A program made the translations under genes and the position numbers. Positions 14,439-61,328 of a DNA stretch of 64,000 nt are shown here, piece by piece. The first letter of the stretch is position 1, and every line of letters begins with the position of its first letter. The notes beneath the pieces are model-generated. The model was not told the DNA's origin, made no database searches, and saw only the letters and a program-made list of their open reading frames with translations. The stretch covers positions 310,001-374,000 of the forward strand of contig NW_027139264.1 in assembly GCF_035084215.1 (NCBI RefSeq), read 5' to 3'. Source of the DNA: Heptranchias perlo (Eukaryota).

Positions 14439-14830
14439 TCTCCCTCCTGCCCTTGCGACGAGGAACAAGACTCCGCACTTTGGGGGGAGGCGAGGGTGGA
14501 AAATGAGCAACAGGAGACTCCGCACAAAGGACGAGGCAGCGAGGGCAGTGGATCTCAGGCAAAGCACGCTGCCCAAATCCTGGGCACGAAAGAGCCCCTA
14601 CTCCGGATGCATTTCCCTTGCTGAAGATCAGAGGAGGACGAGTTCAACAGGACAACTCAATTGCCAGGCAATGCCAATGCTCCACCCCCCACACTGGGTC
14701 CGGGCTAGTTGGACAAGGCAGGAGAACGTCTCTTCGTTGTCAACAGCTGCCCCTCTCCAAATCCAACCAATGCCGACACCTTGCACGGACTGTCTCGGAG
14801 AACGGGTGGCTTTTCCATCCCACCACTCAC

Positions 14831-26641: not shown

Positions 26642-26984
26642 NNNNNNNNNNNNNNNNNNNNNNNNNNNNNNNNNNNNNNNNNNNNNNNNNNNNNNNNNNN
26701 NNNNNNNNNNNNNNNNNNNNNNNNNNNNNNNNNNNNNNNNNNNNNNNNNNNNNNNNNNNNNNNNNNNNNNNNNNNNNNNNNNNNNNNNNNNNNNNNCACA
26801 CACTCACCGTCAGTCTCTCACACACACAATCTCACACTCGCTCAATCTCACAATCACATCCACTGTCACGATCTCACACTGACTCACACACACAGTCGCA
26901 CACTCACTCGCACACACTCACTCACTCACTCACTCAGTCAGTCAGTCTCAGACCCTCTCCCTCTGGCCAACCGTCTCTCTCCCG

Positions 26985-29900
26985 CTCACCTGTCCTCCTC
27001 TCTCTCCCCCTCACCTTTCCTCCTCTCCCTCCCTCACCTGACCTCCTCTCTCTCCCCCTCACCTGTCCTCCTCCTCTCTCTCCACCTCAGCTGTCCTCCT
27101 CTCTCTCCCCCTCACCTGTCCTCCTCTCTCTCTCCCCCTCACCTGTCCTCCTCTCTCACCCTCACCTGTCCTCCGCTCTGTCTCACCCTCACCTGTCCTC
27201 CTCTCTCTCCCCCTCACCTGGCCTTCCCTCTCTCCCCCTCACCTGTCCTCCTCTCTCTCTCCCTCACCTGTCCTCCTCTCTCTCCCCCTCACCTGTCCTC
27301 CTCTCTCTCTCCTCACCTGTCCTCCTCTCTCTCCCCCTCACCTGTCCTCCTCTCTCTCCCCCTCACCTGTCCTCCTCTCTCTCCCCCTCACCTGTCCTCC
27401 TCTCTCTCCCCCTCACCTGTCCTCCTCTCTCTCTCCTCACCTGTCCTCCTCTCTCTCTCTTCACCTGTCCTCCTCTCTCTCCCCCTCACCTGTCCTCCTC
27501 TCTCTCCCCCTCACCTGTCCTCCTCTCTCTCCCCCTCACCTGTCCTCCTCTCTCTCCCCCTCACCTGTCCTCCTCTCTCTCTCTTCACCTGTCCTCCTCT
27601 CTCTCCCCCTCAACTGTCCTCCTCTCTCTCTCCTCACCTGTCCTCCTCTCTCTCTCCTCACCTGTCCTCCTCTCTCTCCCCCTCACCTGTCCTCCTCTCT
27701 CTCCCCCTCACCTGTCCTCCTCTCTCTCCCCCTCACCTGTCCTCCTCTCTCTCCCCCTCACCTGTCCTCCTCTCTCTCCTCCTCACCTGTCCTCCTCTCT
27801 CTCCCTCACCTGTCCTCCTCTCTCTCCCCCTCACCTGTCCTCCTCTCTCCCCCTCAACTGTCCTCCTCTCTCTCCCCCTCACCTGTCCTCCTCTCTCACC
27901 CCCTCACCTGTCCTCCTCTCTCCCCCTCACCTGTCCTCCACTCTCTCCCCCTCACCTGTCCTCCTCTCTCTCTCCTCAAATGTCCTCCTCTCTTTCCCCC
28001 TCACCTGTCCTCCTCTCTCTCCCCTCACCTGTCCCCCTCTCTCTCTCCTCACCTGTCCTCCTCTCTCTCCACCTCACCTGTCCTCCTCTCTCTCCCCCTC
28101 ACCTGTCCTCCTCTTTCTCCCCCTCACCTGTCCTCCTCTCTCTCTCCTCACCTGTCCTCCTCTCTCTCCCCCTCACCTGTCCTCCTCTCTCTCTCCTCAC
28201 CTGTCCTCCTCTCTCTCCCCCTCACCTGTCCTCCTCTCTCTCTCCTCACCTGTCCTCCTCTCTCTCCCCCTCACCTGTCCTCCTCTCTCTCTCCTCACCT
28301 GTCCTCCTCTCTCTCCCCCTCACCTGTCCTCCTCCTCTCTCTCCCCCTCACCTGTCCTCCTCTCTCTCCCCCTCACCTGTCCTCCTCTCTCTCCCCCTCA
28401 CCTGTCCTCCTCTCTCTCTCCTCACCTGTCCTCCACTCTCTCCCCCTCACCTGTCCTCCTCTCTCTCTCCTCACCTGTCCTCCTCTCTCACCACCTCACC
28501 TGTCCTCCTCTCTCCCCCTCACCTGTCCTCCTCTCTCTCTCCTCACCTGTCCTCCTCTCTCTCCCCCTCACCTGTCCTCCTCTCTCTCTCCTCACCTGTC
28601 CTCCTCTCTCTCCCCCTCACCTGTCCTCCTCTCTCCCTCTCACCTGTCCTCCTCTCTCTCCCCCTCACCTGTCCTCCTCTCTCTCCCCCTCACCTGTCCT
28701 CCTCTCTCACCCCCTCACCTGTCCTCCTCTCTCTCCACCTCACCTGTCCTCCTCTCTCTCCCCCTCACCTGTCCTCCTCTCTCTCCACCTCACCTGTCCC
28801 CCTCACCTTTCCTCCTCTCTCCCCCTCACCTGTCCTCCTCTCTCTCCCCCTCACCTGTCCTCCTCTCTCTCTCCCCCTCACCTGTCCTCCTGTCTCTCCC
28901 CCTCACCTGTCCTCCTCTCTCTCCCCCTCACCTGTCCTCCTCTCTCTCCCCCTCACCTGTCCTCCTCTCTCTCCCCCTCACCTGTCCTCCTCTCTCTCCC
29001 CCTCACCTGTCCTCCTCTCTCTCCCCCTCACCTGTCCTCCTCTCTCTCCCTCACCTGTCCTCCTCTCTCTCCCCCTCACCTGTCCTCCTCTCTCTCCCCC
29101 TCACCTGTCCTCCTCTCTCTCTCCCCCTCACCTGTCCTCCTCTCTCTCTCTCTCACCTGTCCTCCTCTCTCTCCCCCTCACCTGTCCTCCTCACTCCCCC
29201 TCACCTGTCCTACTCTCTCTCCCCCTCACATGTCCTCCTCTCTCTCTCTCTCACCTGTCCTCCTCTCTCTCCCCCTCACCTGTCCTCTCTCTCTCCCCCT
29301 CACCTGTCCTCCTCTCTCTCCCCCTCACCTGTCCCCCTCACCTTTCCTCCTCTCTCCCCCTCACCTGTCCTCCTCTCTCTCCCCCTCACCTGTCCTCCTC
29401 TCTCTCCCCCTCACCTGTCCTCCTCTCTCTCCCCCTCACCTGTCCTCCTCTCTCTCCCCCTCACCTGTCCTCCTCTCTCTCCCCCTCACCTGTCCTCCTC
29501 TCTCTCTCCCCCTCACCTGTCCTCCTCTCTCTCCCCCTCACCTGTCCTCCTCTCTCTCCCCCTCACCTGTCTTCCTCTCTCTCCCCCTCACCTGTCCTCC
29601 TCTCTCTCCCCCTCACCTGCCCTCCTCTCTCTCCCCCTCACCTGTCCTCCTCTCTCTCCCCCTCACCTGCCCTCCTCTCTCTCCCTCACCTGTCCTCCTC
29701 TCTCTCCCCCTCACCTGTCCTCCTCTCTCTCCCCCTCACCTGTCCTCCTCTCTCTCCCCCTCACCTGTCCTCCTCTCTCTCCCCCTCACCTGTCCTCCTC
29801 TCTCTCCCCCTCACCTGTCCTCCTCTCTCTCCCCCTCACCTGCCCTCCTCTCTCTCCCCCTCACCTGTCCTCCTCTCTCTCCCCCTCACCTGTCCTCCTC

Positions 29901-30000
29901 TCTCTCCCTCACCTGTCCTCCTCTCTCTCCCCCTCACCTGTCCTCCTCTCTCTCCCCCTCACCTGTCCTCCTCTCTCTCCCCCTCACCTGTCCTCCTCTC
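26985..30000. repeat. ~25-bp pyrimidine-rich minisatellite (CCTCACCTGTCCTCCTCTCTCTCCC)n, ~120 copies
   Basis: Direct periodicity with a variable (CT)n length. Almost every unit contains CTCACCTG (CAGGTGAG on minus). Confidence 0.97.
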
Positions 30001-30039
30001 TCTCTCTCTCCTCTCTCTCTTTCTCCTTCTCTCTCTCTC

Positions 30040-30140
30040 CGTGACGGAGCCTCTGACCGTCTCCCCAGAGTGCACCGGGGCCGCGGGCGGACCGCTTTCC
30101 GAGCCGCGCGGCCTTGTGGGTAATGAACACCGCCATTGCT
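30040..30140 (-). promoter_or_regulatory. CpG-rich patch; putative promoter/first non-coding exon of the zinc-finger gene
   Basis: Essentially the only unique CpG-dense stretch between 16.5 and 39.6 kb. Minus strand has AATGGCGG (YY1-like), TTACCCACAAGGCCGCGCG (ZNF143/Staf-like), CGGAAA and a donor-like ACG|GTCAGA at 30057. Confidence 0.45.
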
Positions 30141-33100
30141 GCTCCCAGACTGACCAAAACACCAGACAGACAGGGGGGAATCTCACCATCAGTGACCGCT
30201 CCCAGACTGACCAAAACACCAGACAGACAGAGGGGAATCTCACCATCAATCACCGCTCCCAGACTGACCAAAACACCAGACAGACAGGGGGGAATCTCAC
30301 CATCAGTGACCGCTCCCAGACTGACCAAAACACCAGACAGACAGGGGGGAATCTCACCATCAGTGACCGCTCCCAGACTGACCAAAACACCAGACAGACA
30401 GGGGGGAATCTCACCATCAGTCACCGCTCCCAGACTGACCAAAACACCAGACAGACAGGGGGGAATCTCACCATCAGTCACTGCTCCCAGACTGACCGAA
30501 ACACCAGACAGACAGGGGGGAATCTCACCATCAGTGACCGCTCCCAGACTGACCAAAACACCAGACAGACAGAGGGGAATCTCACCATCAGTGACCGCTC
30601 CCAGACTGACCAAAACACCAGACAGACAGGGGGGAATCTCACCATCAATCACCGCTCCCAGACTGACCAAAACACCAGACAGACAGAGGGGAATCTCACC
30701 ATCAGTGACCGCTCCCAGACTGACCAAAACAACAGACAGACAGAGGGGAATCTCACCATCAATCACCGCTCCCAGACTGACTAAAACACCAGACAGACAG
30801 AGGGGAATCTCACCATCAGTGACCGCTCCCAGACTGACCAAAACACCAGACAGACAGGGGGGAATCTCACCATCAGTGACCGCTCCCAGACTGACCAAAA
30901 CACCAGACAGACAGGGGGGAATCTCACCATCAGTGACCGCTCCCAGACTGACCAAAACAGCAGACAGACAGGGGGAATCTCACCATCAATCACCGCTCCC
31001 AGACTGACCAAAACAGCAGACAGACAGGGGGGAATCTCACCATCAGTCACTGCTCCCAGACTGACCAAAACACCAGACAGACAGGGGGGAATCCAACCAT
31101 CAGTCACCGCTCCCAGACTGACCAAAACAGCAGACAGACAGAGGGGGGAATCTCACCATCAATCACCGCTCCCAGACTGACCAAAACAGCAGACAGACAG
31201 GGGGGAATCCCACCATCAGTCACTGCTCCCAGACTGACCAAAACACCAGACAGACAGGGGGGAATCCCACCATCAATCACCGCTCCCAGACTGACCAAAA
31301 CACCAGACAGACAGGGGGGAATCTCACCATCAGTCACCGCTCCCAGACTGACCAAAACACCAGACAGACAGGGGGGAATCCCACCATAAGTCACCGCTCC
31401 CAGACTGACCAAAACAGCAGACAGACAGGGGGGAATCCCACCATCAGTCACTGCTCCCAGACTGACCAAAACACCAGACAGACAGGGGGGAATCTCACCA
31501 TCAGTCACCGCTCCCAGACTGACCAAAACACCAGACAGACAGGGGGGAATCCCACCAAAAGTCACCGCTCCCAGACTGACCAAAACAGCAGACAGACAGG
31601 GGGGAATCCCACCATCAGTCACTGCTCCCAGACTGACCAAAACACCAGACAGACAGGGGGGAATCTCACCATCAGTCACCGCTCCCAGACTGACCAAAAC
31701 AGCAGACAGACAGGGGGGAATCTCACCATCAGTCACCGCTCCCAGACTGACCAAAACACCAGACAGACAGGGGGGAATCCCACCATCAGTCACCGCTCCC
31801 AGACTGACCAAAACAGCAGACAGACAGGGGGGAATCTCACCATCAGTCACCGCTCCCAGACTGACCAAAACACCAGACAGACAGGGGGGAATCCCACCAT
31901 CAATCACCGCTCCCAGACTGACCAAAACAGCAGACAGACAGGGGGGAATCTCACCATCAGTCACCGCTCCCAGACTGACCAAAACAGCAGACAGACAGGG
32001 GGGAATCCCACCATCAGTCACCGCTCCCAGACTGACCAAAACACCAGACAGACAGGGGGGAATCTCACCATCAGTCACCGCTCCCAGACTGACCAAAACA
32101 CCAGACAGACAGAGGGGAATCTCACCATCAGTCACCGCTCCCAGACTGACCAAAACACCAGACAGACAGGGGGGAATCTCACCATCAGTCACCGCTCCCA
32201 GACTGACCAAAACACCAGACAGACAGGGGGGGAATCTCACCATCAGTCACCGCTCCCAGACTGACCAAAACACCAGACAGACAGAGGGGAATCTCACCAT
32301 CAGTCACCGCTCCCAGACTGACCTAAACACCAGACAGACAGGGGGGAATCTCACCATCAGTCACCGCTCCCAGACTGACCAAAACACCAGACAGACAGGG
32401 GGGGAATCTCACCATCAGTCACCGCTCCCAGACTGACCAAAACACCAGACAGACAGAGGGGAATCTCACCATCTGTCACCGCTCCCAGACTGACCAAAAC
32501 ACCAGACAGACAGAGGGAAATCTCACCATCAGTCACCGCTCCCAGACTGACCAAAACACCGGACAGACAGGGGGGAATCTCACCATCAGTGACCGCTCCC
32601 AGACTGACCAAAACACCAGACAGACAGAGGGAAATCTCACCATCAGTCACCGCTCCCAGACTGACCAAAACACCAGACAGACAGAGGGGAATCTCACCAT
32701 CAGTGACCGCTCCCAGACTGACCAAAACACCAGACAGACAGGGGGGAATCTCACCATCAATCACCGCTCCCAGACTGACCAAAACAACAGACAGACAGAG
32801 GGGAATCTCACCATCAGTCACCGCTCCCAGACTGACCAAAAAACCAGACAGACAGGGGGGAATCTCACCATCAGTGACCGCTCCCAGACTGACCAAAACA
32901 CCAGACAGACAGAGGGGAATCTCACCATCAATCACCGCTCTCAGACTGACCAAAACACCAGACAGACAGGGGGGAATCAAACCATCAATCACCGCTCCCA
33001 GACTGACCAACACACCAGACAGACAGAGGGGGGAATCTCACCATCAGTCACCGCTCCCAGACTGACCAAAACACCAGACAGACAGGGGGGGAAGCTCACC

Positions 33101-36100
33101 ATCAGTGACCGCTCCCAGACTGACTAAAACAGCAGACAGACAGGGGGGAATCTCACCATCAATCACCGCTCCCAGACTGACCAAAACACCAGACAGACAG
33201 GGGGGAATCTCACCATCAATCACCGCTCCCAGACTGACCAAAACACCAGACAGACAGGGGGGAATCTCACCATCAATCACCGCTCCCAGACTGACCAAAA
33301 CACCAGACAGACAGAGGGGAATCTCACCGTCAGTCACCGCTCCCAGACTGACCAAAACACCAGACAGACACCGGGGAATCTCACCATCAATCACCGCTCA
33401 CAGACTGACCAAAACACCAGACAGACAGGGGGGAATCTCACAATCAATCACCGCTCCCAGACTGAGCAAAACACCAGACAGAGAGAAGGGGAATCTCACC
33501 ATCAGTCACCGCTCCCAGACTGACCAAAACACCAGACAGACAGGGGGGAATCTCACCATCAGTCACCGCTCCCAGACTGACCAAAACACCAGACAGACAG
33601 GGGGGAATCTCACCATCAGTCACCGCTCCCAGACTGACCTAAACACCAGACAGACAGGGGGGAATCTCACCATCAGTGACCGCTCCCAGACTGACCAAAA
33701 CAAGAGACAGACAGGGGGGAATCTCACCATCAATCACCGATCCCAGACTGACCAAAACACCAGACAGACAGGGGGGAATCTCACCATCAGTCACTGCTCC
33801 CGGACTGACCAAAACACCAGACAGACAGGGGGGAATCTCACCATTAATCACCGCTCCCAGACTGACCAAAACACCAGACAGACAGGGGGGAATCTCACCA
33901 TCAGTCACCGCTCCCAGACTGACCAAAACACCAGACAGACAGAGGGGAATCCCACCATCAGTGACCGCTCCCAGACTGACCAAAACACCAGACAGACAGG
34001 GGGGAATCTCACCATCAGTCACCGCTCCCAGACTGACCAAAACACCAGACAGACAGGGGGGAATCTCACCATCAGTCACTGCTCCCAGACTGACCAAAAC
34101 ACCAGACAGACAGGGGGGAATCTCACCATCAGTCACCGCTCCTAGACTGACCAAAACACCAGACAGACAGGGGGGAATCTCACCATCAGTCACCGCTCCC
34201 AGACTGACCAAAACACCAGACAGACAGGGGGGGAATCTCACCATCAGTCACCGCTCCCAGACTGACCAAAACACCAGACAGACAGGGGGGGAATCTCACC
34301 ATCAGTCACCGCTCCCAGACTGACCAAAACACCAGACAGACAGAGGGGAATCTCACCATCAGTCACCGCTCCCAGACTGACCAAAACACCAGACAGACAG
34401 GGGGGAATCTCACCATCAGTCACCGCTCCCAGACTGACCAAAACACCAGACAGACAGGGGGGGAATCTCACCATCAGTCACCGCTCCCAGACTGACCAAA
34501 ACACCAGACAGACAGAGGGGAATCTCACCATCTGTCACCACTCCCAGACTGACCAAAACACCAGACAGACAGAGGGAAATCTCACCATCTGTCACTGCTC
34601 CCAGACTGACCAAAACACCAGACAGACAGAGGGAAATCTCACCATCAGTCACCGCTCCCAGACTGACCAAAACACCAGACAGACAGGGGGGAATCTCACC
34701 ATCAGTGACCGCTCCCAGACTGACCAAAACACCAGACAGACAGAGGGAAATCTCACCATCAGTCACCGCTCCCAGACTGACCAAAACACCAGACAGACAG
34801 AGAGGAATCTCACCATCAGTCACCGCTCCCAGACTGACCAAAACACCAGACAGACAGGGGGGAATCTCACCATCAATCACCGCTCCCAGACTGACCAAAA
34901 CACCAGACAGACAGAGGGGAATCTCACCATCAGTCACCGCTCCCAGACTGACCAAAACACCAGACAGACAGGGGGGAATCTCACCATCAGTCACCGCTCC
35001 CAGACTGACCAAAACACCAGACAGACAGGGGGGGAATCTCACCATCAGTCACCGCTCCCAGACTGACCAAAACACCAGACAGACAGGGGGGGAATCTCAC
35101 CATCAGTCACCGCTCCCAGACTGACCAAAACACCAGACAGACAGAGGGGAATCTCACCATCAGTCACCGCTCCCAGACTGACCAAAACACCAGACAGACA
35201 GGGGGGAATCTCACCATCAGTCACCGCTCCCAGACTGACCAAAACACCAGACAGACAGGGGGGGAATCTCACCATCAGTCACCGCTCCCAGACTGACCAA
35301 AACACCAGACAGACAGAGGGGAATCTCACCATCTGTCACCGCTCCCAGACTGACCAAAACACCAGACAGACAGAGGGAAATCTCACCATCTGTCACCGCT
35401 CCCAGACTGACCAAAACACCAGACAGACAGAGGGAAATCTCACCATCAGTCACCGCTCCCAGACTGACCAAAACACCGGACAGACAGGGGGGAATCTCAC
35501 CATCAGTGACCGCTCCCAGACTGACCAAAACACCAGACAGACAGAGGGAAATCTCACCATCAGTCACCGCTCCCAGACTGACCAAAACACCAGACAGACA
35601 GAGGGGAATCTCACCATCAGTCACCGCTCCCAGACTGACCAAAACACCAGACCGACAGGGGGGAATCTCACCATCAATCACCGCTCCCAGACTGACCAAA
35701 ACAACAGACAGACAGAGGGGAATCTCACCATCAGTCACCGCTCCCAGACTGACCAAAACACCAGACAGACAGAGGGGAATCTCACCGTCAATCACCGCTC
35801 CCAGACTGACCAAAACACCAGACAGACAGGGGGGAATCTCACCATCAATCACCGCTCCCAGACTGACCAAAACACCAGACAGACAGAGGGGAATCTCACC
35901 ATCAGTCACCGCTCCCAGACTGACCAAAACACCAGACAGACAGGGGGGAATCTCACCATCAATCACCGCTCCCAGACTGACCAAAACACCAGACAGACAG
36001 AGGGGAATCTCACCATCAGTGACCGCTCCCAGACTGACCAAAACACCAGACAGACAGAGGGGAATCTCACCATCAGTCACCGCTCCCAGACTGAACAAAA

Positions 36101-39100
36101 CACCAGACAGACAGGGGGGAATCTCACCATCAATCACCGCTCCCAGACTGACCAAAACACCAGACAGACAGGGGGGAATCAAACCATCAGTCACCGCTCC
36201 CAGACTGATCAAAACACCAGACAGACAGAGGGGAATCTCACCATCAATCACCGCTCTCAGTCTGACCAAAACACCAGACAGACAGGGGGGAATCAAACCA
36301 TCAATCACCGCTCCCAGACTGACCAACACACCAGACAGACAGAGGGGCGAATCTCACCATCAGTCACCGCTCCCAGACTGACCAAAACACCAGACAGACA
36401 GGGGGGGAAGCTCACCATCAGTGACCGCTCCCAGACTGACCAAAACACCAGACAGACAGGGGGGAATCTCACCATCAATCACCGCTCCCAGACTGACCAA
36501 AACACCAGACAGACAGGGGGGAATCTCACCATCAATCACCGCTCCCAGACTGACCAAAACACCAGACAGACAGAGGGGAATCTCACCGTCAGTCACCGCT
36601 CCCAGACTGACCAAAACACCAGACAGACACCGGGGAATCTCACCATCAATCACCGCTCACAGACTGACCAAAACACCAGACAGACAGGGGGGAATCTCAC
36701 CATCAATCACCGCTCCCAGACTGACCAAAACACCAGACAGAGAGAGGGGGAATCTCACCATCAGTCACCGCTCCCAGACTGACCAAAACACCAGACAGAC
36801 AGGGGGGAATCTCACCATCAGTCACCGCTCCCAGACTGACCAAAACACCAGACAGACAGGGGGGAATCTCACCATCAGTCACCGCTCCCAGACTGACCAA
36901 AACACCAGACAGACAGGGGGGAATCTCACCATCAATCACCGCTCCCAGACTGACCTAAACACCAGACAGACAGGGGGGAATCTCACCATCAGTCACCGCT
37001 CCCAGACTGACCAAAACACCAGACAGACAGGGGGGAATCTCACCATCAATTACCGATCCCAGACTGACCAAAACACCAGACAGACAGGGGGGAATCTCAC
37101 CATCAGTCACTGCTCCCGGACTGACCAAAACACCAGACAGACAGGGGGGAATCTCACCATTAATCACCGCTCCCAGACTGACCAAAACACCAGACAGACA
37201 GGGGGGAATCTCACCATCAGTCACCGCTCCCAGACTGACCAAAACACCAGACAGACAGAGGGGAATCCCACCATCAGTGACCGCTCCCAGACTGACCAAA
37301 ACACCAGACAGACAGGGGGGAATCTCACCATCAGTCACCGCTCCCAGACTGACCAAAACACCAGACAGACAGGGGGGAATCTCACCATCAGTCACTGCTC
37401 CCAGACTGACCAAAACACCAGACAGACAGGGGGGAATCTCACCATCAGTCACCGCTCCCAGACTGACCAAAACACCAGACAGACAGGGGGGAATCTCACC
37501 ATCAGTCACCGCTCCCAGACTGACCAAAACACCAGACAGACAGGGGGGGAATCTCACCATCAGTCACCGCTCCCAGACTGACCAAAACACCAGACAGACA
37601 GTTGGAGAATCTCACCATCAGTCACCGCTCCCAGACTGACCAAAACACCAGACAGACAGAGGGGAATCTCACCATCAGTCACCGCTCCCAGACTGACCAA
37701 AACACCAGACAGACAGGGGGGAATCTCACCATCAGTCACCGCTCCCAGACTGACCAAAACACCAGACAGACAGGGGGGGAATCTCACCATCAGTCACCGC
37801 TCCCAGACTGACCAAAACACCAGACAGACAGAGGGGAATCTCACCATCTGTCACCGCTCCCAGACTGACCAAAACACCAGACAGACAGAGGGATATCTCA
37901 CCATCTGTCACCGCTCCCAGACTGACCAAAACACCAGACAGACAGAGGGAAATCTCACCATCAGTCACCGCTCCCAGACTGACCAAAACACCAGACAGAC
38001 AGGGGGAATCTCACCATCAGTGACCGCTCCCAGACTGACCAAAACACCAGACAGACAGAGGGAAATCTCACCATCAGTCACCGCTCCCAGACTGACCAAA
38101 ACACCAGACAGACAGAGGGGAATCTCACCATCAGTCACCGCTCCCAGACTGACCAAAACACCAGACAGACAGGGGGGAATCTCACCATCAATCACCGCTC
38201 CCAGACTGACCAAAACAACAGATAGACAGAGGGGAATCTCACCATCAATCACCGCTCCCAGACTGACCAAAACACCAGACAGACAGGGGGGAATCTCACC
38301 ATCAATCACCGCTCCCAGACTGACCAAAACACCAGACAGACAGGGGGGAATCTCACCATCAATCACCGCTCCCAGACTGACCAAAACACCAGACAGACAG
38401 AGGGGAATCTCACCATGAATCACCGCTCCCAGACTGACCAAAACACCAGACAGACAGGGGGGAATCTCACCATCAGTCACCGCTCCCAGACTGACCAAAA
38501 CACCAGACAGACAGGGGGGAATCTCACCATCAGTCACCGCTCCCAGACTGACCAAAACACCAGACAGACGGGGGGAATCTCACCATCAGTCACCGCTCCC
38601 AGACTGACCAAAACACCAGACAGACAGAGGGGAATCTCACCATCAATCACCGCTCCCAGACTGACCAAAACACCAGACAGACAGGGGGGAATCCCACCAT
38701 CAGTGACCGCTCCCAGACTGACCAAAACACCAGACAGACAGGGGGGAATCTCACCATTGATCACCGCTCCCAGACTGACCAAAACACCAGACAGACAGGG
38801 GGAAATCTCACCATCAATCACCTGTCCCAGACTGACCAAAACACCAGACAGACAGGGGGGAATCTCACCATCAGTGACCGCTCCCAGACTGACCAAAACA
38901 CCAGACAGACAGGGGGGAATCTCACCATCAGTCACCGCTCCCAGACTGACCAAAACACCAGACAGACAGAGGGGAATCTCACCATCAATCACCGCTCCCA
39001 GACTGACCAAAACACCAGACAGACAGAGGGGAATCTCACCATCAATCACCGCTCCCAGACTGACCAAAACACCAGACAGACAGGGGGGAATCTCACCGTC

Positions 39101-39620
39101 AGTCACCGCTCCCAGACTGACCAAAACACCAGACAGACAGGGGGGAATCCCACCATCAGTGACCGCTCCCAGACTGACCAAAACACCAGACAGACAGGGG
39201 GGAATCTCACCATTGATCACCGCTCCCAGACTGACCAAAACACCAGACAGACAGGGGGAAATCTCACCATCAATCACCTGTCCCAGACTGACCAAAACAC
39301 CAGACAGACAGGGGGGAATCTCACCATCAGTGACCGCTCCCAGACTGACCAAAACACCAGACAGACAGGGGGGAATCTCACCATCAGTCACCGCTCCCAG
39401 ACTGACCAAAACACCAGACAGACAGAGGGGAATCTCACCATCAATCACCGCTCCCAGACTGACCAAAACACCAGACAGACAGAGGGGAATCTCACCATCA
39501 ATCACCGCTCCCAGACTGACCAAAACACCAGACAGACAGGGGGGAATCTCACCGTCAGTCACCGCTCCCAGACTGACCAAAACACCAGACAGACAGGGGG
39601 GAATCCCACCATTGATCAGC
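30141..39620. repeat. 57-bp minisatellite (CTCCCAGACTGACCAAAACACCAGACAGACAGGGGGGAATCTCACCATCAGTCACCG)n, ~165 copies, with higher-order duplications
   Basis: 57-nt period. Variant patterns recur at offsets of 456, 801 and ~3316 bp. Confidence 0.98.
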
Positions 39621-44745: not shown

Positions 44746-44934
44746 TCTCCAGCAGTCTCCCTCAGGATTCCTGTCTTCTTCCTTCCTGTCTCCACACAGT
44801 TCCTGAATCCCCTTCTGTCCGTGATTCTGGCTCCCCTTAAATCCTCTCTTTGGTCTCCTTCCTCCTGCTCTGTGCTCTGAGGTGTCTCCCTGTACACTGT
44901 TTTATTGTAAGTTGCTGTACACAGTCAAAACATC

Positions 44935-45385
44935 ACATTGGAACATAGGAACAGGAGGAGGCCATTCAGCCCCTCGATCCTGTTCCGCCATTCAATTAGA
45001 TCATGGCCAATCTGCATCTCAACTCCATCCTTGGTGCCATATCCCTTAATAACCTTGCCGAACAAAAATCGATCAATCTCAGTTGTGAAATTTTCAATTG
45101 ACCCCCAGCCTCAACAGTTTTTTGGGGGAGAGAGTTACAGGTTTCCACTCCCCTTTGTGTGAAGAAACGCTTCCTGACATCACCCCTGAACGGCCTGGCT
45201 CTAATTTTAAGGTGACGCCCCCTTGTTCTGGATTCTCCCACCGGAGGAAATAGTTTCTCTCTATCTACAATATCAAATCCTTCAATGATCTTAATTACAG
45301 CACCCGTTAATCTTCTGCACTCAAGGGAATACAAGCCTAGTCTGTGCAACCTGTCCTCATAATTCAACCCTTTCAGCCCCCGGTA
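44935..45385 (-). mobile_element. CR1 LINE 3' fragment
   Basis: [18 protein letters not shown]...RKRFFTQRGVETCNSLPQ. Confidence 0.88.
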
Positions 45386-45621
45386 TGAAAGTACTTCTCA
45401 TAATGAATGGCGTTTCCGACATTACAACAGTGATGACACTTTCACATTACTTCACTTTCTGTGAAGCGCTTTGGGACATCCTGAGGTTGTGAAAGGTGAT
45501 GTATAAAAAGATCTTTTGTTCTTTCCGAACCTTCTTGTGCTGCTTCAGCAGGGTGACACTGAAATCGAAGCAGATTCGAAGCCTGCCCCCCCGTTCCCAC
45601 CTTCACCTCACAGCAACACAA

Positions 45622-45740
45622 TGGACTTTGGACTGTCCGATGTCCGATGTGTTGCTCAGGCCCACGACTGACTTTTATTTCTGAGCAAACACTGCCCGTT
45701 TATTATAGTCTCTGAGCGGGTCAAGGCCAAAGTGAACTCT
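45622..45740. promoter_or_regulatory. Candidate enhancer module, copy 1 (HNF4-, forkhead- and NR5A-like sites)
   Basis: TGGACTTTG at 45622-30 (HNF4 core), then GCAAACA, GTTTAT and TCAAGGCCA. 45662-45740 is duplicated at 46969-47047. Confidence 0.4.
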
Positions 45741-46004
45741 GTGTGTCCGATTGTGGGGAGAATGAGCTGCTGACTCTTCAATAATCAACTGGTGCTCGAG
45801 GCAAAAATACTCACAGTGATGTTGATCTGGGTGAATTAGAATAAATTGGCATCGAAGCAAATTCACAGACAGATTTTTATGTTAATTTTCAATGCACCGT
45901 CTTCGAGTCGCGCTTAACATGAGGCTCCTCAGAACAGCAATCCATGAGGATAACAGAGCATTGAACAATGTCACCAAATCCAGTCAGTGGACGTCATGCT
46001 CAAA

Positions 46005-46440
46005 CTGAGGGGGAGGGGGAAAGGGGAAGGGGGAGAGCATGGGGGAGGCAGAGGGATACGATGTGGGAGAGCGGGAGGGAGAAGGAGAGGGGGAGGGAGA
46101 TGGAGAGAGGGAGGGGGAGGAGATGGGAGTGGGAGATAGTGAGGGGTAGGGAGATGGGAGGGAAAGGGATGGGGAGGGAGAGGGGACGGGGATGGAGAAG
46201 GAGAAAGAGAGGTGGAGGATTGGGTAGAATTGTGCAGGGAGAGGGGGAAGGAGGGGATATGAGGAGGGAGGGGGGAATTGGATGAAGAGAGGGAGAGGAA
46301 GGGAAAGGAGATGGGGAGTGGAAGAGGACAAGAAGGGAGATGAGGAGGGGGAGGGAGAGGGAGATGGGAGTGAGAGGGTGGGACAGGGAGAGAGGGATGG
46401 TGGGAGGGAGAGGAGGAGGAGGGGACGGGGAGGGAGAGCG
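46005..46440 (+). repeat. G/A-rich low-complexity purine tract
   Basis: About 430 nt, almost entirely G and A. Confidence 0.9.
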
Positions 46441-46968
46441 AGTCGGGAGATTATCTGGCCATTAACTCGTTGCTATTGGTGGGATCTTGCTGTGCGCAAA
46501 TTGGCTGCCGTGTTTCCTACATTAAAACAGTGACTACACTTCACTAATACTTCACTGTCTGTAAAACTCTTTGGGAGGTCCTGAGGTGGTGAAATCACAA
46601 TAGGAATGTGAGTCTCTCTTTTCTTTGTGGTCCCATTGCCAGTGAGAGTCGGTGCATTGGGAAGAGAATGGGAGGGGTGAAAGTGGGAGTCTGGAATAGA
46701 CCATTGAAATACAGGGGGTGTAACCAGATGCAATGGTTTGGTGTTAATACTGGGCTGGGCCTCAGTGTGAACCCCTGCTGTAAGATGCAGGCTCAGACTC
46801 CACTCCCTGGGACCCAGTGATCAGAACAAGTCCCTCCATTCTAACTGGATCTGGTTATCAGACCTGCTGCACACAAGCACCAATAAGTAGCTTCAGACTC
46901 GAGTGGTGTTGAAAAGCGCAAGAGATTAAGTTACTGTTACAGCAGCTTCTCTCCTGGTTAATCCGTGT

Positions 46969-52716: not shown

Positions 52717-52779
52717 CTCTGTACCAGTGAAAAGAATCCCAGTCTGTTCTCATAACTCAAGCCTCTCATCGGAACCTCG

Positions 52780-54435: not shown

Positions 54436-54696
54436 ATTTCCACATCCTCGCATTTTACTACATACTGAGCCGTGGCGGGGCCGAGATGCCCGAGTACAGC
54501 TTGGTCGCGATGCTCGATGACTATGAGATAGTGTATTTCGACAGCACCCTGCAGCGGACTGTGCCCAGACAGCAGTGGATGGCCGACTCCTTCGACAACC
54601 ATCACTGGGACGCCATCGCCATCACAATGGCGGGGTTCCATGGTCTGGTCAGAGGAAACACCGAGATATTTTACCGACAGCAACACGGTGCCTCGA
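54436..54696 (+). CDS. Nonclassical MHC class I heavy chain, alpha1 exon
   Basis: Acceptor ...gatcctgcAG, donor GA|GTGAGT, 261 nt, phase 1/1. (D)FHILAFYYIL...PEYSLVAMLDDYEIVYFDS...VPRQQWM...HWD matches the class I alpha1 pattern. Confidence 0.93.
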
Positions 54697-54949
54697 GTGA
54701 GTATCCTCACAGAGCCGGTGCAGCTATCGACTGACAGGAGGAAAGGATTTGTATCCATATAGAGCCTTATCCTGTCTCGGAGAAATGTCCCGAACCACTT
54801 TACACCCATTAAATGACTTGGGATGACCTGGTCATTGGCACTATCTGGGAGTAACATGGCAGACATTTTCTGCACAGCAAATGGCAATGAGATGATTGAT
54901 TTGTTCATCTGTTTTTATTGGTGTGGATTGAGGGAGAAATGGGAGCAAT

Positions 54950-55312
54950 AGGTTCTTTTTATGTTCATTTGAACAGGAAGACGGGGCCTCGATTTAACGT
55001 CTCATCTGAAGGACGGCATCTCCGACAGTGCAGCACTCCCTCAGTACTGCCCCTCCGACAGTGCAGCACTCCCTCAGTACTGCCCCTCCGACAATGCATC
55101 ACTCCCTCAGTACTGCCCCTCCGACAGTGCACCGCTCCCTCAGTACCGCCCCTCCGACAATGCATCACTCCCTCAGTACTGCCCCTCCGACAATGCATCA
55201 CTCCCTCAGTACTGCCCCTCCGACAATGCATCACTCCCTCAGTACTGCACTGGAGTGTCAGCCCAGATTATGCGCTGAAATCTCTGGAGTGGGGCCTGAA
55301 ACCACGACCTTC
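54950..55312 (-). mobile_element. Deu-domain SINE with a 33-bp tandem expansion (55020-55250)
   Basis: Head GAAGGTCGTGGTTTCAGGCCCCACTCCAGAG and Deu core GATGAGACGTTAAATCGAGGCCCCGTC on minus. Same 33-mer as 15540-16140. Confidence 0.8.
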
Positions 55313-55887
55313 TTACTCTCGCCTCTAGTTCAGAAGGTTGTGGGTTCAAGTCCCACTCCAGAGACTGGAACACAAAATCTCGGCTGGCACTCCCAGTACA
55401 GCACTGAGGGAGGGGCAGCACTGTGGGAGGGGCAGCACTGAGGGAGGGGCAGCACTGTGGGAGGGGCAGCACTGAGGGAGGGGCAGCACTGTGGGAGGGG
55501 CAGCACTGAGGGAGGGGCAGCACTGTGGGAGGGGCAGCACTGTGGGAGGGGCAGCACTGAGGGAGGGGCAGCACTGAGGGAGGGGCAGCACTGAGGGAGG
55601 GGCAGCACTGAGGGAGGGGCAGCACTGAGGGAGGGGCAGCACTGTGGGAGGGGCAGCACTGTGGGAGGGGCAGCACTGAGGGAGGGGCAGCACTGTGGGA
55701 GGGGCAGCACTGTGGGAGGGGCAGCACTGAGGGAGGGGCAGCACTGAGGGAGGGGCAGCACTGAGGGAGGGGCAGCACTGTGGGAGGGGCAGCACTGAGG
55801 GAGGGGCAGCACTGAGGGAGGGGCAGCACTGTGGGAGGGGCAGCACTGTGGGAGGGGCAGCACTGAGGGAGGGGCAGCACTGAGGGA
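55313..55887 (+). mobile_element. SINE head running into a 17-bp minisatellite (GWGGGAGGGGCAGCACT)n, ~28 copies
   Basis: B-box-like GGTTCAAGTCCC at ~55343. The array at 55400-55887 is a half-unit version of the SINE 33-mer. Confidence 0.8.
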
Positions 55888-56339
55888 TTTGATGTGAGCA
55901 CCTTGAACGTTGGAATGAAATCATCGCTGCCACTTGTTTCTCCTCTTCTAAAGCTGCGTTGCCAGGGTTACTAACAAACAGATGAAATCAGGACAGGCGG
56001 GTCCATCAAGCCTGTCCTGTCTTGGCACGGTGAAACAACACACACACACACACCATCAGCACCCTCTCCCTCCCACAGTCACACAATCTCCTGGGAGAGG
56101 CCAAAGAAAGAGGATGAAACTGAGGCCAAGTTAGGAAAGCAAACACTCTGGGAGATTCCTCTGCGACCCCCCCCCCCAGGGAATCGAGGAAGGTGCAGGA
56201 GATCACAGTGTCTGATATCACTGGTCCCCATTAACCCCACACACCTCCTATAACTCGAGATACTTTCTATTGGTCGCCAGTCCCCTTTCCAACACTTGCA
56301 GTCCACCCACACACACTGTGCATGCAGGCAACTTGTTCA

Positions 56340-57625
56340 TCGAATCACAGAAAGGTGACAGCACGGAAGGAGGCCATTCGGCCCATCGAGTCCGTGCTGG
56401 TTCTATGCAAGAGCAATCCAGCTCGTCCCACTCCCCTGCCCTATCCCTGTAGCCCTGCAAATTTTTTCCTTTCATTACTTATCCAGTTCCCTTTTGAAGT
56501 CCACGATTGAATCTGCCTCCACCATCCCCTCGGGCCGTGCATTCCAGATCCTAACCACTCGCTGTGTAAAAAAGTTTTTCCTCAAGTCACCTTTGGTTCT
56601 TTTGCCAATCACCTTAAATCTATGACCTCTGGTTTTTAACCCTTCCGTCAATGGGAATAGTTTCTTCATGATTTTGAACACCTCTATCAAATCCCCTCGC
56701 AACCGTCTCTGTTCCAAGGAGAACAACCCCAGCTTCTCCAGTCTATCCACATAACTAAAGTCCCTCATCCCTGGAATCATTCTGGTAAATCTATTCTGCA
56801 CCCTCTCTAAGGCCTTCACATCCTTCCTAAAGTGCGGTGCCCAGAACTGGACACAATACTCCAGTTGTGGCCGAACCAGTGTTTTATAAAGGTTCATCAT
56901 GACTTCCATACTTTTGTACTCTATGCCTCTTTTTAAAAAGCCCAGGATCCAGGATGCTTTTTTAACCGCTTTCTCAACCTGCCCTGCTACCTTGAATGAT
57001 TTGTGCACATATACCCCCAGATCTCTCTGTTCCTGTACCCTTTTAGAATTGTGCCCTCCAGTACCTCTTCTATATCAATTTTTAGCCCATCCAGTATCTT
57101 AACTATATCTTCCTTTACCGAGACTCTGGCAGCATCTTCTTCCTTGGTAAAAACAGATGCAAATTACTCATTTAGTACCTTGGCCATCTCCTCTGCCTCC
57201 ATGAGTAGATCTCCTTTATGGTCCCTAATCGGCCCCACCCCTCCTCTTACTACCCGTTTACTGTTTATATGCCTGCAGAAGACTTTTGGATTCCCTTTTA
57301 TGTTGACCGTCAGTCTATTCTCAGACTCTCTCTTTGCCCCTCTTATTTCCTTTTTCACTTCCCCTCTGAACTTTCTATATTCTGCCTGGTTCTCACTTTT
57401 ATTATCAACCTGATATCTGTCATATGCCCCTTTTTTCTGTTTCATCTTACTCTCTATCTCTTTTGTCATCCAGGGAGCTCTGGCTTTAGTTGCCCTCCCT
57501 TTCCCCCTCGTGGAGACTGTACCCGAACCATCTCCTCTTTAAAGGCCGCCCACTGTTCAATTACAGTTTTGCCTGACAATCTTTGATTCCGATTTACCCG
57601 GGACCAGATCTGTTCTCATCCCGTT
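56340..57625 (-). mobile_element. CR1 LINE fragments with an internal deletion
   Basis: RPQLEYCVQFWAP...FFTQRVVRIWN (56475..57008), and NIKGNPKVFCRHINSKR..VGPIRD (57164..57469). Confidence 0.9.
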
Positions 57626-57729
57626 GAAATTCCAGAGATCGATGACTCTCTGTGACAATCTAACCTATTGCTAAGGTTAAAGTCCAAGACAGCAGGACAT
57701 AAATGGAACCTCAACGTAACACAGCTGCT

Positions 57730-58242
57730 TAGGAGCATCGAAAGAGGAAGAGGCCATTCAGCCCCTCGAGCCTGCTCCACCATTCATTTATATCATGGCT
57801 AATCTGCACCGTAACTCCATTTTCCAGCCTTTGCTTCCTATCCATCGATACCCTTACCTAACAAAAATTTAACAATCTCAGTCTTGAAAGCTCCAATGGG
57901 CCGCCAGCATCCCACAGCCTTTTGGGGGAGAGAGTTCCTGATTCCCACTCCCCTTTGTGTGATAAAGTGCTTCCTGATTTCACTCCTAAATGGCCTGGCT
58001 CTAAATCTAAGATCTTGATTCCCCCACCTGAGGAAATAGTCCCTCTGGAATTCCCTCCCTAAACCTCTCCACCTCTCTCTCCTCCTTTAAGATGCTCCTT
58101 CAAACCTACCTCTTTGTCCAAGCTTTTGGTCACCTGTCCTAATATCTCCTTATGTGGCTCAGTGTCAAATTTTGTTTGTCAAGTGCCTTGTGATGTTTTA
58201 CTCCGTGAAAGGCGCTATATAAATGCAAGTTGTTGTTGTTGT
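57730..58242. mobile_element. CR1 3' fragment (-) followed by an L2 3' tail (+)
   Basis: CR1 3' UTR reverse complement at 57730-58040. The L2 tail ...GGCGCTATATAAATGCAAGTTGTTGTTGTTG ends ~55 bp before the alpha2 acceptor. Confidence 0.8.
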
Positions 58243-58297
58243 ATGTACCCGATCGAACCCTTTTCACATTTTCAATTGACTTGAGTTGTTTTTCCAG

Positions 58298-58573
58298 GTG
58301 TTTTCTTTGTCCAGGGAATGTGTGGCTGCGAACTGAACAGCGACAACTCCACGGAGGGGTTTATAAAGTTTGGATATGACGGGGAGGACGCGTATGTTTT
58401 TGACAAGGACAGATTGAGTTGGATTGCGGTGAATCCAGAGTTCCAGACTTTAGCAGACCGGTGGAATGCGAACACCTTCATGAACAAATACTTCAAGACC
58501 CTGTTGGAAAAGGACTGTGTGAAGTGGCTGCTGATATACCTTCGGGCTGGGCGAGAAGCACTACAGAGGAAAG
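58298..58573 (+). CDS. Nonclassical MHC class I heavy chain, alpha2 exon
   Basis: Acceptor ttgtttttccAG, donor AAG|GTACCT, 276 nt, phase 1/1, in frame with alpha1. VQGMCGCEL...FGYDGED...W...RWNAN...LEKDCVKWLLIYLRAGREALQRK, with the C101-C164 pair. Confidence 0.96.
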
Positions 58574-58879
58574 GTACCTCGAGCGAGCGGGAACTGGAGG
58601 TGCCGGACAGGCAAAGTTTATATTCCCAGTCTGCACCTGGCCTCAGTACCCCTTGGGGTGGGTGGGGTCGGGATGGGGGAGATAATCGGGCAGGTGACCT
58701 AAATCCGATGACCTACTCAGTCTCCCCGGCTGGAAAGCCCGTGCGTGTTGACATCGGGTGAGAACGGGGTTCAACTAAGTTGTAATACCCCCATGGTTGA
58801 ATAGCGTCCTGGTCCTCACTGTGAAGGCTCACTCGTGAACACTGGGTGCTTGTGTGCGTTACCGGAACGTGACCCGTTA

Positions 58880-60910
58880 CATGGAATTTACAACACAGAA
58901 ACAGGCCATTCGGCCCAACAGGTCTATGCCAGTGTTATTGCTGCACCCTCCCTACTTCATCTCCCCCGATCAGCATATCCTTCTATTCCTTTCTCCCTCA
59001 TGTGTTTATCCAGCTTCCCCTTAAAGGCATCTGTGCTATTCGCCTCAACTACTCCTTGTGAGAGCGAGCTCCACATTCAAACCACTCTCTGAGTTTCTCC
59101 TGAATTCCCCATTGGATTTATTAGTGACTCTCTTATATTTATGGCCCCTCGTTCTGGCCTCTGCCACAAGTGGAAACATCGGGGGAAAAATTTGGATGTG
59201 GCCGTTTTTGGGCGGGGGCAGCGTGATGTGCTTTACCCCGTGTCCAATGGTCCCGGCGCAGGCAGGATGCAAGTTTCGACCCACCCGAGGACCGACCTGC
59301 GATCAGCGTTCCATCCCAGGCCTTGCACCTGGAATCAATGCAATTCACACTTTCCACCACCAGAGGGAGTCTAATCTCTTAAAGGGAGGATGTTTATCAG
59401 AAATCTCTTAAAGGGAGCTGGTACCTGTTATTTGCTGAAAATAACAGTCTGCACGGAGTCTGAACGGAGATCAGACATCGCACATGTAAAACACAAATGC
59501 AGGTCCCATCCCTATGTTAACACACTGATGAGTTCTGTTAAAACATTGAATAAAGGTTGCGCACTACTAAATCCCACATCCTCCAATCTGCACACCAGAC
59601 CTCACCAATCTGCCGACCTTAGTTGGTACCAGGCCTGTGAGAGTGCATGCACCAGGGTTCTCTGCTGATGCACTAGAGGCCTTGGTGCAAGAGGTGGACA
59701 GAAGGAGGGACATCCTATCTCCGCAGTGGGGGGAAGGGAGGGGGGGGTGCAAGAGGCCCTCCAGACAGATATCCAAAAGGCAGTGGGAGGCAGTGGGGGA
59801 TGAAGTCAATGCCAGGCTCACAGCATCATGAACATGGATACAGTGCAGGAAGAAGTTCAATGCTTTGACATGAGTGGTCAAGGTGAGTAAGGTCAACTGT
59901 CAAGTGGTGTCTCCAACCAACTGCTCCACACACGACACCCCCATCACCCACATACCAACAAACTCTTTCCATCAGTACTCAACTCTTCCCATCAGATGCT
60001 TCCTCTCACCCTCACACATTACCACTGTTTCAAGCCGTCCACCCACAACTCACAGGCCACACACACTGGCAGCTATTCAACCATGACAGGCACATCACCC
60101 AGACACAGGAGAAGGTGGCGCATATCAAGAGGCAGCAAGTGGCAGTGACATTCAGCCCCTCGAGCCCGTTCCACCATTCAATGAGATCATGGTGGACCTG
60201 TGACCTAACTCCATATACCCACCTTAGCCCCATATCCCATAATACCCTTGGTTCACAGAAATCTATCAATCTCAGATTTAACATTCACAAGTGAGCTAGC
60301 ATCAACTGCCGTCTGTAGAAGAGTGTTCCAAACATCTCCCACCCTTTGTGTGAAGAAGCATTTCCTAACTTCACTCCTGCACCTCCTGGCTCTAAATGTT
60401 TCGCGATGTCCCCGTGTCCTCGTATTCAAATGTAGGAGACCTCCGAAAACAGTTACAAATGTCTCCGCAGCCAGAAGCAATAATCCAGCAACTAACCTGT
60501 AAATCCTGCATGGTCCCTTTAAATAGCGCTGGTGGGGGGTCCTCCAGGAACTGTAAGACACGTTCAGATGGTCGGGGTTAAGATTGTGCGTTGAGTTGAG
60601 CGTTAAGTCCCGAAATGGTGTCTATCACTTTAAATCAGCTTTGCACACTGATTGAAGCCATTTTCTCCCTACTTTACATGATTCCAGTGTTCGTTATCTG
60701 CGCCTGCGCTAACTCCGATACCAAGATGGTGTCTGGCGCACGTCACGCAGGAAATGTGCGTGCGCATCCGAGATGCGATCTTGGATGTCGGAGAGGCCGT
60801 CTCGCGCCGAAACAACGGGCGCTACACGGCCCTATTTAGCGCCCATCTTCCCTACGTCTATCCTATCAAACCCTTTCATAATCTTAACGACCTCTATCAG
60901 GTGACCCCTC
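58880..60910 (-). mobile_element. CR1 3' fragment (58880-59180 + 60845-60910) split by a Harbinger insertion
   Basis: Rejoining the flanks gives the continuous CR1 sequence AGTGGAAAC-ATC-TTCCCTACGTCTATCCTATCAAACCC. Confidence 0.75.
59181..60844 (+). mobile_element. Non-autonomous PIF/Harbinger DNA transposon with a decayed Myb/SANT-like (trihelix) gene
   Basis: 3-bp TSD ATC at 59178-80 and 60845-47. Ends GGG...CCC with degenerate TIRs. APGFSADALEALVQEV..RRDIL...QWEAVGDEVNA...*TWIQCRKKFNAL, with donor AAG|GTGAGT at ~59884. A small CR1 piece is nested at ~60148-60420. Confidence 0.82.
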
Positions 60911-61055
60911 AGCTGAACTCCGGTGAACTCCAGCTGTCTCTCAGCATCAGTCATCTGCCTTCAGGCCGAGAAAATTGATGGTGGTGGGCGGGGAAGAAAT
61001 GAAGGCAAAAGAAGAGAACTTGTCACCGATTGTACTCTTTGTTTAAATCTCTCAG

Positions 61056-61328
61056 TCGCCCCTGAGGTGTTTATTGGGAAGAGGAGTGACGGGGACAGAG
61101 TGCTAAGGGTCTCCTGCCTTGTGTCGGGGTTCTACCCCTGGGCCATCGAGGTGACTTGGTTGGGGAATGGCGAGGAGATCGCTGACATTGAATCCAGTGA
61201 CGTGCTGCCCAACCAGGATATGACCTATCGGGTACTGAAAACGATCGAGCTGAGTGGAGACGACAGGAAGAGCTACTCCTGTCATATCGAGCACGCCAGC
61301 CTCCTGCGGGGGATCAACGTACCCTGGG
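61056..61328 (+). CDS. Nonclassical MHC class I heavy chain, alpha3 (C1-set Ig) exon
   Basis: Acceptor aaatctctcAG, donor TGGG|GTGAGT, 273 nt, phase 1/1. VAPEV...VSCLVSGFYPWAIEVTW...VLPNQDMTY...YSCHIEHASL...VPW. Confidence 0.96.

Follow-up and report, generated by a model that had tools for sequence, protein, structure and literature searches.

The window analyzed here comprises 64,000 nucleotides of contig NW_027139264.1 (positions 310,001 to 374,000) in the Heptranchias perlo assembly GCF_035084215.1 (G000), and carries an MHC class I gene, here called X, downstream of a zinc-finger open reading frame and satellite blocks (Table 1). Three class I exons, each flanked by AG and GT and all in phase 1, splice into a stop-free alpha1-alpha2-alpha3 chain. 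Together with the transmembrane exon, they give the layout of an MHC class I heavy chain, an alpha1-alpha2 platform followed by a C1-set alpha3 domain. A preliminary description of this DNA, made from the letters alone, had proposed these exon sizes, the common phase and the uninterrupted chain, and had suggested that splicing be checked; boundaries, frame and a spliced RNA-type contig agree with it. This contig (run X5, 1,438 nt) joins all three exons at the called boundaries, and represents support from one sample, with runs X5, X7 and X13 presumed to be RNA as no run is recorded as such. The spliced transcript bears the allele of another copy of the gene, not that of the window. The alpha1 exon of the window encodes a threonine (A at 54660), where 11 of the 12 copies in the assembly encode alanine.

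Table 1 Features of the window and of associated loci in the assembly
Feature	Position	Strand	Remarks
C2H2 zinc-finger ORF	13317..14597	-	427 codons between stops; amplified together with X
Satellite blocks, 45-, 25- and 57-bp units	17118..39612	.	Recur upstream of copies in the window's contig
Single remaining ~2.2-kb direct repeat	44746..46963	+	Deletion junction 46963/46964
alpha1 exon	54436..54696	+	261 nt
alpha2 exon	58298..58573	+	276 nt; protein identical in 12/12 copies
alpha3 exon	61056..61328	+	273 nt; C1-set Ig domain
TM/cytoplasmic exon	G000:C1097:375387-375577		Intact; 1.4 kb past the window end
UFA-like gene	G000:C1101:256-263 kb		Separate from X

Loss of the leader exon

The gene had been described as intact, which does not hold for the window copy. 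Its ATG and leader exon are absent, as 3,302 bp were lost between direct repeats of 2.2 kb. In intact copies, two such repeats, approximately 90% alike, surround a 1,080-bp spacer that carries the ATG and a 52-nt leader exon. The signal-peptide exon expected of a class I heavy chain is kept in 7 of the 12 copies, and the deletion was mapped in the other five, on four contigs and with several mosaic repeat patterns. We found no leader exon for the window copy in the 364 kb of upstream contig, which holds only the leaders of two other copies. A scan for alternative leaders (window positions 39600-54435) returned six ATG-to-donor candidates, of which one, at 43869, is moderately hydrophobic; this candidate is also present in an intact copy and shows no sign of use as a leader. 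Recombination between the two flanking direct repeats is the likely cause of the loss, and would be a simple way for a class I gene to die. With its leader exon deleted, the window copy is likely non-functional, and being probably dead it carries little weight in itself.

Probable amplification of X

The assembly contains 12 near-identical X copies, arranged in tandem units of 140-180 kb with TRIM and zinc-finger genes. The zinc-finger ORF recurs complete in 10 places (99-100%), and once more in two parts at the ends of a contig. Only two amino-acid variants were seen in alpha1 among the 12 copies, and none in alpha2. High groove polymorphism, as in class Ia genes, was not seen in X, judged from the 12 assembly copies and the cross-species rows. 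On contig C1080, one X copy lies ~120 kb from the UGA gene, and on contig C1101 another sits together with UDA, UCA/UEA-like and UFA-like genes.

The X copies likely result from recent tandem amplification of a satellite-rich unit of 140-180 kb. The competing explanation, that assembly errors (retained haplotigs or collapsed repeats) produced both the 12 copies and the leader deletion from one intact gene, would account for the placement of all copies on short, unplaced, satellite-rich contigs, for the single repeat mosaic shared by two deleted copies (that of the window and the third copy of C1105), and for the DNA contig of run X1, which shows only G at 54660. We consider it very unlikely, as two contigs carry three tandem copies each with introns that differ by 1-2%, the alpha1/alpha2 exons of UGA, UFA and UDA occur once each in the genome versus 12 times for X, and the deletion is found in five copies whose mosaics differ. 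The depth of the run X1 contig over the X exons (440-630) lacks a single-copy baseline, and therefore no copy number was drawn from it; the real number may differ from 12. The 12 copies bear on the statement that such genes are single- or low-copy.

Phylogenetic placement

Database searches found proteins orthologous to X in 17 species of sharks and rays, with an alpha1-alpha2 identity of 67-80% where measured. X was monophyletic at 95-100 in all five trees, with X and UGA forming separate clades at 95-100. X, UGA and UFA, the last being one long-branch row, fell into one clade in four alpha1/alpha2 trees, at UFBoot values of 100, 99, 99 and 97, as counted by bipartition in trees without CD1, MR1 or W-type sequences. 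The sister of X is unstable: X with UGA received 88, 81 and 39, X with UFA received 80 on alpha1 alone, and the alpha3 tree did not group X with UGA. UDA and UCA/UEA formed separate clades and did not cluster with X.

Both X and UGA are present in at least five species. The UGA orthologue of this genome is another gene, which matches the nurse shark UGA structure 9CH4 at E 4e-141, and the separate UFA-like gene on C1101 matches the published nurse shark UFA sequence (8GM8) by eye. Since the genome has its own UFA and UGA orthologues, and the identity of X to the latter is only 46%, X is neither of the two. By its sequence, X is a nonclassical class I lineage in the UFA/UGA clade, distinct from both. 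The preliminary description had wavered between a known lineage (UBA-UFA) and an unassigned one: the trees argue against UAA, UBA, UCA/UEA, UDA, UFA and UGA, and for a separate lineage. Clustering inside classical UAA with conserved anchors, the case that would have spoken against the original call, was seen neither in the trees nor in the alignment.

UFA and UGA have been treated previously (PMC10751288, PMC12562908), and in the white-shark table of PMC10751288 each class Ib locus carries a gene id and the bare label “MHC-Ib”, which does not set an X orthologue apart. CD1-like class I molecules have been described in sharks before, with lipid binding reported, and the X lineage would add a third member. 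No description of a third CD1-like shark lineage was found in the searchable literature, which excludes the paper behind 8GM8/9CH4 and the UDA/UEA papers.

Peptide anchors and the groove

Residues are given in HLA-A2 numbering, hand-checked via the published UGA/HLA-A2 alignment (PMC10751288 supplement) and a gap-free X/UGA alignment. The nine positions that anchor peptides in classical class I molecules read F7, H59, Q84, A123, L143, R146, W147, L159 and Y171 in X, compared to YYRLTKWYY in the class-Ia-like gene of the same genome; the conserved anchors of UAA are absent. The lysine-to-arginine exchange at R146 is conservative, and is also found in frog and teleost U-type rows. All nine assignments had been made by eye beforehand and proved correct on the checked alignment, as did the listed groove residues and the beta2m-interface residues Q96, D119, G120 and D122 of the window copy. 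Q96, G120 and D122 occur in 14 of 14 lineage rows (one row with R117), and D119 in 9 of 14. The presentation of hydrophobic peptides via non-canonical anchors would fit the retained W147 and Y171 and the intact class I fold, but no X row that covers Y7, Y59, R/Y84, T143 and Y159 has kept them, unlike UDA and the class-Ia-like genes, and we give this reading a very small probability indeed.

Groove hydrophobicity was expressed as the mean Kyte-Doolittle value over 36 positions, which we take to be those of the HLA-A2 groove, and is a measure by sequence position, not in three dimensions. X reaches 1.22 (0.92-1.38 over 14 rows, with two charged residues), compared to 0.56 for UGA (6 rows), 0.53 for UFA-like (1 row), -0.02 for class-Ia-like (5 rows) and -0.63 for UDA (7 rows). 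Among UCA/UEA-like rows, the highest values go up to 1.02, within the lower part of the X range. The X groove is thus predicted to be more hydrophobic than those of UFA or UGA, and the earlier call of a nonclassical class I molecule with a hydrophobic, anchor-less groove is now supported in numbers. Across X rows, 20 of the 36 groove positions are invariant versus 59 of 142 elsewhere, and F7, H59, C99 and W167 are fixed, unlike in UGA. The bulky aromatics F7, Y9, F70, F116, F156 and W167 could fill the X groove instead of lining it.

A closed or empty groove, with X acting as a receptor or receptor ligand that presents no antigen (HFE-, FcRn- or MIC-like), is unlikely in our judgement. Strong non-polymorphic conservation and the many large aromatic groove residues are consistent with it. 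So is the fold ranking, in which HFE comes second among the cluster representatives (Z 24.2), level to within 1 Z with chicken CD1-1, ZAG and a marsupial class I molecule. However, the small groove-floor residues G97, C99 and A123 are invariant in 14 of 14 X rows, which suggests that groove space has been kept, and the closest relatives of X are reported lipid binders.

Putative lipid presentation

UFA and UGA bind CD1d-like lipids, according to a personal communication (PMC12562908, section 2.1). Lipid presentation by X is plausible from its groove residues, and is strengthened by the kinship with UFA and UGA. Intact X copies would enter the ER and bind beta2m, load lipid without TAP or peptide anchoring, and reach the cell surface. 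In the five genera seen, the UGA tail terminates in YNxV, with a splice isoform and Pristiophorus as exceptions. In the X copies of this assembly, no tyrosine was found in the tails, and with it no CD1-type YxxΦ motif. This endosomal tail motif is present in CD1b, CD1c and CD1d but missing in CD1a, whose lipid sampling takes place at the surface or in early recycling compartments. Since the X tail lacks the YxxΦ motif of UGA, we propose that X would follow the CD1a route and meet its lipids there rather than in late endosomes.

Taken together, we favor, with some confidence, the view that X is a conserved elasmobranch class I molecule, likely paired with beta2m and carrying lipid in a non-polymorphic hydrophobic groove, with a window copy that is likely non-functional. 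A more far-reaching reading is possible but doubtful: elasmobranchs would possess, beside UFA and UGA, a third ancient, unnamed lipid-presenting lineage whose groove exceeds theirs in hydrophobicity and whose tail carries no signal for endosomal sorting. Sharks would then divide the survey of lipids among cell compartments, as mammals do with CD1a versus CD1b/d, and in this species the lineage would be amplified ~12-fold, with leader exons gained and lost through the repeats as a means of adjusting gene dosage. Where CD1 and lipid presentation came from is an open question, which UFA and UGA have just pushed back to the root of the jawed vertebrates. If true, a third lineage predating the shark-ray split would mean that lipid-type class I had already diversified, and a comparison of X with UGA and UFA could show directly whether groove shape and trafficking have diverged in the way they did among CD1 isoforms.

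Comparison with known class I systems

Shark UGA (PDB 9CH4), a CD1-like class Ib molecule of the same clade, is nearest to X in both sequence and fold. It is the best solved-structure match by alpha1 (E 4e-22, followed by UFA at 6e-10) and over the whole chain (E 2e-70), and matches the X model (pLDDT 88) with Z 27.2 and an RMSD of 3.1 Å over 262 aligned residues; an earlier model from a 13-row alignment (pLDDT 42) was set aside. The two share the groove motifs T66-x-AGFHG, G97 and M152-N-x-YFK-x-L159-LE-x-DC, and differ in the tail motif. Shark UFA (PDB 8GM8) has also lost the anchors, but is more distant, with ~30% identity and a fold Z of 21.8. CD1 (chicken CD1-1 and human CD1d, Z 24.0 and 22.0) resembles X in its class I fold, apolar groove, lack of polymorphism and lack of peptide anchors, at an identity of 21-26%. 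The fold likeness of X and CD1 is common to all class I molecules. An ESM Atlas search returned generic class I clusters only.

MR1 is the best sequence match of alpha2 alone (human MR1 E 2e-21, UGA 2e-17), ranks above UGA by Foldseek E-value, and gave rise to the label “MHC class I-related gene protein-like” carried by the database entries. These likenesses, and the YF1 structures among the fold matches (Z 25.1), would fit the binding of small metabolites or lipopeptides, as in MR1 or chicken YF1 with its N-myristoylated ligands. Against this, the alpha1 match to MR1 is distant (E ~1e-4), the X groove has just two charged residues, and the basic residues that we take to be the MR1 ligand contacts (K43, R9 and R94) align to T, Y and G in X. 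Likewise, at HLA positions 45 and 97, where MR1 has presumed ligand-contact Lys and Arg, X has T/I/A/C and G. We regard this reading as improbable, and the lipid-carrying groove as the better account. Finally, shark UAA/UBA, UCA/UEA and UDA belong to the same superfamily and class Ib cluster as X but to other clades, with at most 34% alpha1-alpha2 identity, and UDA and the class-Ia-like genes retain the peptide anchors that X has lost.

Gene structure and lineage placement

The class I gene of the window belongs to a nonclassical lineage of sharks and rays, here called X. Its three exons lie exactly where the preliminary description placed them, with AG/GT ends in phase 1, and splice into a stop-free alpha1-alpha3 chain with MHC_I and C1-set domains (Pfam). 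The introns are filled with remnants of LINE-type endonuclease/reverse-transcriptase sequences and with a number of short tandem repeats. HLA-A2 numbering was transferred by hand via the published HLA-A2/shark UGA alignment (from the accessible part of PMC10751288, supplementary file 10) and a gap-free X/UGA alignment. With this mapping the proposed anchor, groove and beta2m-contact residues all hold, R146 being a merely conservative change at a peptide-anchor site.

Coordinates of the window's gene and related features
Feature	Location	Strand	Remarks
alpha1 exon	window 54436-54696
alpha2 exon	window 58298-58573
alpha3 exon	window 61056-61328
TM/cytoplasmic exon	1.4 kb beyond window end		intact
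Leader deletion junction	window 46963/46964		3,302 bp including ATG gone
LINE-type remnant	window 48198-49817	-
TRIM gene (RING, B-box, PRY-SPRY) of amplified unit	G000:C1097:84402-96089	-	recurs near 239 kb, 409 kb
UGA orthologue	G000:C1080:362981-370609	-	single; ~120 kb from leader-bearing X copy
Class Ib cluster	G000:C1101:13.8-263 kb		UDA, about five UCA/UEA-like genes, UFA-like gene
Tandem leader exons	G000:C1486:21342-42529		three full, one partial; ~7-kb spacing
Tandem leader exons	G000:C1105:294956-302396		two; ~7-kb spacing
Orphan alpha3 exon	G000:C519:9955		near-identical to next
Orphan alpha3 exon	G000:C576:24070

The nearest database proteins (99-100%) are from Heptranchias perlo and labelled 'MHC class I-related gene protein-like'. 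A further 16 species, 10 of them sharks and 6 batoids, each have a single orthologue, isoforms aside, except Pristiophorus with two; the 12 orthologues measured show 67-80% identity across alpha1-alpha2. In the PDB, X is best matched by 9CH4, an entry titled shark UGA, while shark UFA is represented by 8GM8. Identity with UGA was ruled out by a separate gene on contig C1080, which hits 9CH4 at E 4e-141 and shares 46% identity with X, and identity with UFA by a distinct UFA-like gene on C1101. Of the 26 class I sequences used as queries in the accessible part of the 2023 supplement (PMC10751288), none was closer to X by eye than UGA.

Trees (JTT+G4, UFBoot) were calculated from 51 of 114 usable rows, every fourth UCA/UEA-like row being kept, and from a second set of 28-29 chosen rows; CD1, MR1 and W-type sequences are absent from both. 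X is monophyletic (UFBoot 95-100) and forms a clade with UGA and UFA (97-100 on alpha1/alpha2). X pairs with UGA at 88, 81 and 39, and with UFA at 80 on alpha1 alone; its alpha3 does not cluster with that of UGA. The preliminary description had suggested that the gene may belong either to a known UBA-UFA lineage or to an unassigned one; the trees place it within the UFA/UGA clade, as a lineage separate from both. X occurs in both sharks and rays, and published UGA sequences come from nurse shark and skate; the X/UGA split therefore predates the shark-ray divergence.

A structure model from a 124-row alignment (pLDDT 87.7) is predicted to resemble 9CH4 most (Z 27.2, rmsd 3.1 Å; other class I ≤25.6), with chicken CD1-1 at Z 24.0, human CD1d at 22.0 and UFA at 21.8. 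Foldseek E-values put MR1 chains first for this model; the highest listed TM-score was that of 9CH4 (0.80).

Amplification and leader loss

For every X exon, seven contigs together yield 12 matches at 98-100%, against one occurrence each of UGA, UFA and UDA; twelve is an assembly count, which haplotigs may inflate and collapse may deflate. The window (G000:C1097:310001-374000) lies on a contig built of roughly three tandem 140-180 kb units, in each of which satellites accompany a class I gene, a TRIM gene and a C2H2 zinc-finger gene; about 41% of this contig, C1097, is tandem repeat. The zinc-finger gene is present in 10 full copies. On contig C1203, where no X exon was found, it is split over both ends, which suggests one circularised array unit. 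X copies differ by 0.3-0.5% in exons and 0.9-1.4% in flanking intron, and the expansion is therefore recent.

Beyond the class Ib cluster lie a long 37-bp satellite and then a leaderless X copy. The alpha3 exon of UDA was not found on that contig; the two orphan alpha3 exons possibly represent it. Contigs C1050, C1057, C1161, C1438, C1654 and C526 carry about eleven class-Ia-like genes of UAA/UBA type; their alpha3 exons are nearly identical, and one of the genes has a stop in alpha2. In Scyliorhinus torazame, the accession numbers of the X and UGA proteins are almost consecutive and belong to one contig, which weakly hints at a conserved neighbourhood.

The feature is real and its residues were read correctly; the description as intact fails for the window's copy, which is missing the ATG and leader exon. 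Other copies carry a leader exon of 52 nt, which sits 10.8 kb upstream of alpha1 inside a 1,080-bp spacer flanked by two direct repeats (~2.2 kb each, ~90% identity); the window retains one repeat only. Leader searches found the exon in 7 of the 12 genes. In all five others the upstream DNA crosses a single repeat without the spacer, in several mosaic patterns, and we infer that recombination between the repeats caused the deletion. A product without signal peptide would likely not enter the ER, and the window's copy is probably dead. Database model P0020 (269 aa), which has the Thr variant of the window, begins at an internal Met. Elsewhere there are tandem duplicates of the leader exon, and leader number ranges from 0 to ~4 per X gene.

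Orthologue models (P0007-P0016, P0027, P0137-P0141) have no credible leader in any species except Heptranchias and Pristiophorus. This likely reflects poor annotation through low expression, although true leader loss may be the cause.

In run X5, a single sample that the tool guessed to be RNA, a 1,438-nt contig abuts all three exons at their boundaries, so the X family is spliced as predicted. It runs 88 nt past alpha1; this extension has no placement on window 46450-55000 and in size alone fits a leader plus 5' UTR. The contig has G at 54660, against A in the window, so the dominant transcript does not come from the window's copy, whose minor transcripts could go unseen as assembled contigs drop rare variants.

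Groove properties and comparison with known CD1-like molecules

Hydropathy averaged over an HLA-A2-based list of 36 groove-facing positions was 1.22 for X, 0.56 for UGA, 0.53 for UFA-like, 0.22 for UCA/UEA-like (-0.43 to 1.02, 78 rows), -0.02 for class-Ia-like and -0.63 for UDA sequences. Within X, 20 of the 36 groove positions are invariant, compared with 59 of 142 elsewhere, and the anchors read FHQALRWLY in all rows but three carpet sharks with W147L. Judged from these alignments, the X groove is fixed and apolar and has been maintained over the elasmobranch radiation. Binding of unusual peptides seems very improbable, and a closed groove with a receptor function unlikely. Metabolite or lipopeptide binding would accord with the alpha2 of X matching MR1 best, but the basic contacts of MR1 are absent, and this reading is distinctly improbable. 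We rather favour that intact X copies would make a product that pairs with beta2m, goes to the surface and carries lipids, by analogy with reports for UFA and UGA.

In the accessible parts of two papers, UFA is mentioned as CD1-like, unpublished and located in the UDA/UEA cluster (PMC10751288), and UFA and UGA are named as a pair of CD1-like genes in single or low copy, with CD1d-like lipid binding by personal communication (PMC12562908). No description of a third CD1-like shark lineage was found in the literature searched, outside which most subscription papers fell; 9CH4 was released in March 2026, and the paper belonging to it may well already describe X, at somewhat less than even chances. 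The X gene is already annotated automatically in public genomes. We are highly confident that the gene represents a lineage of its own within the UFA/UGA clade and that the window's copy is leaderless; X is an apparently unnamed third member lineage of the shark CD1-like clade, amplified in Heptranchias perlo. UGA tails terminate in YNxV, which is a YxxΦ motif, except in two Pristiophorus models and one splice isoform, whereas the X tail in the Heptranchias perlo genome is without tyrosine. The missing sorting motif suggests that lipid loading of X may occur outside late endosomes.
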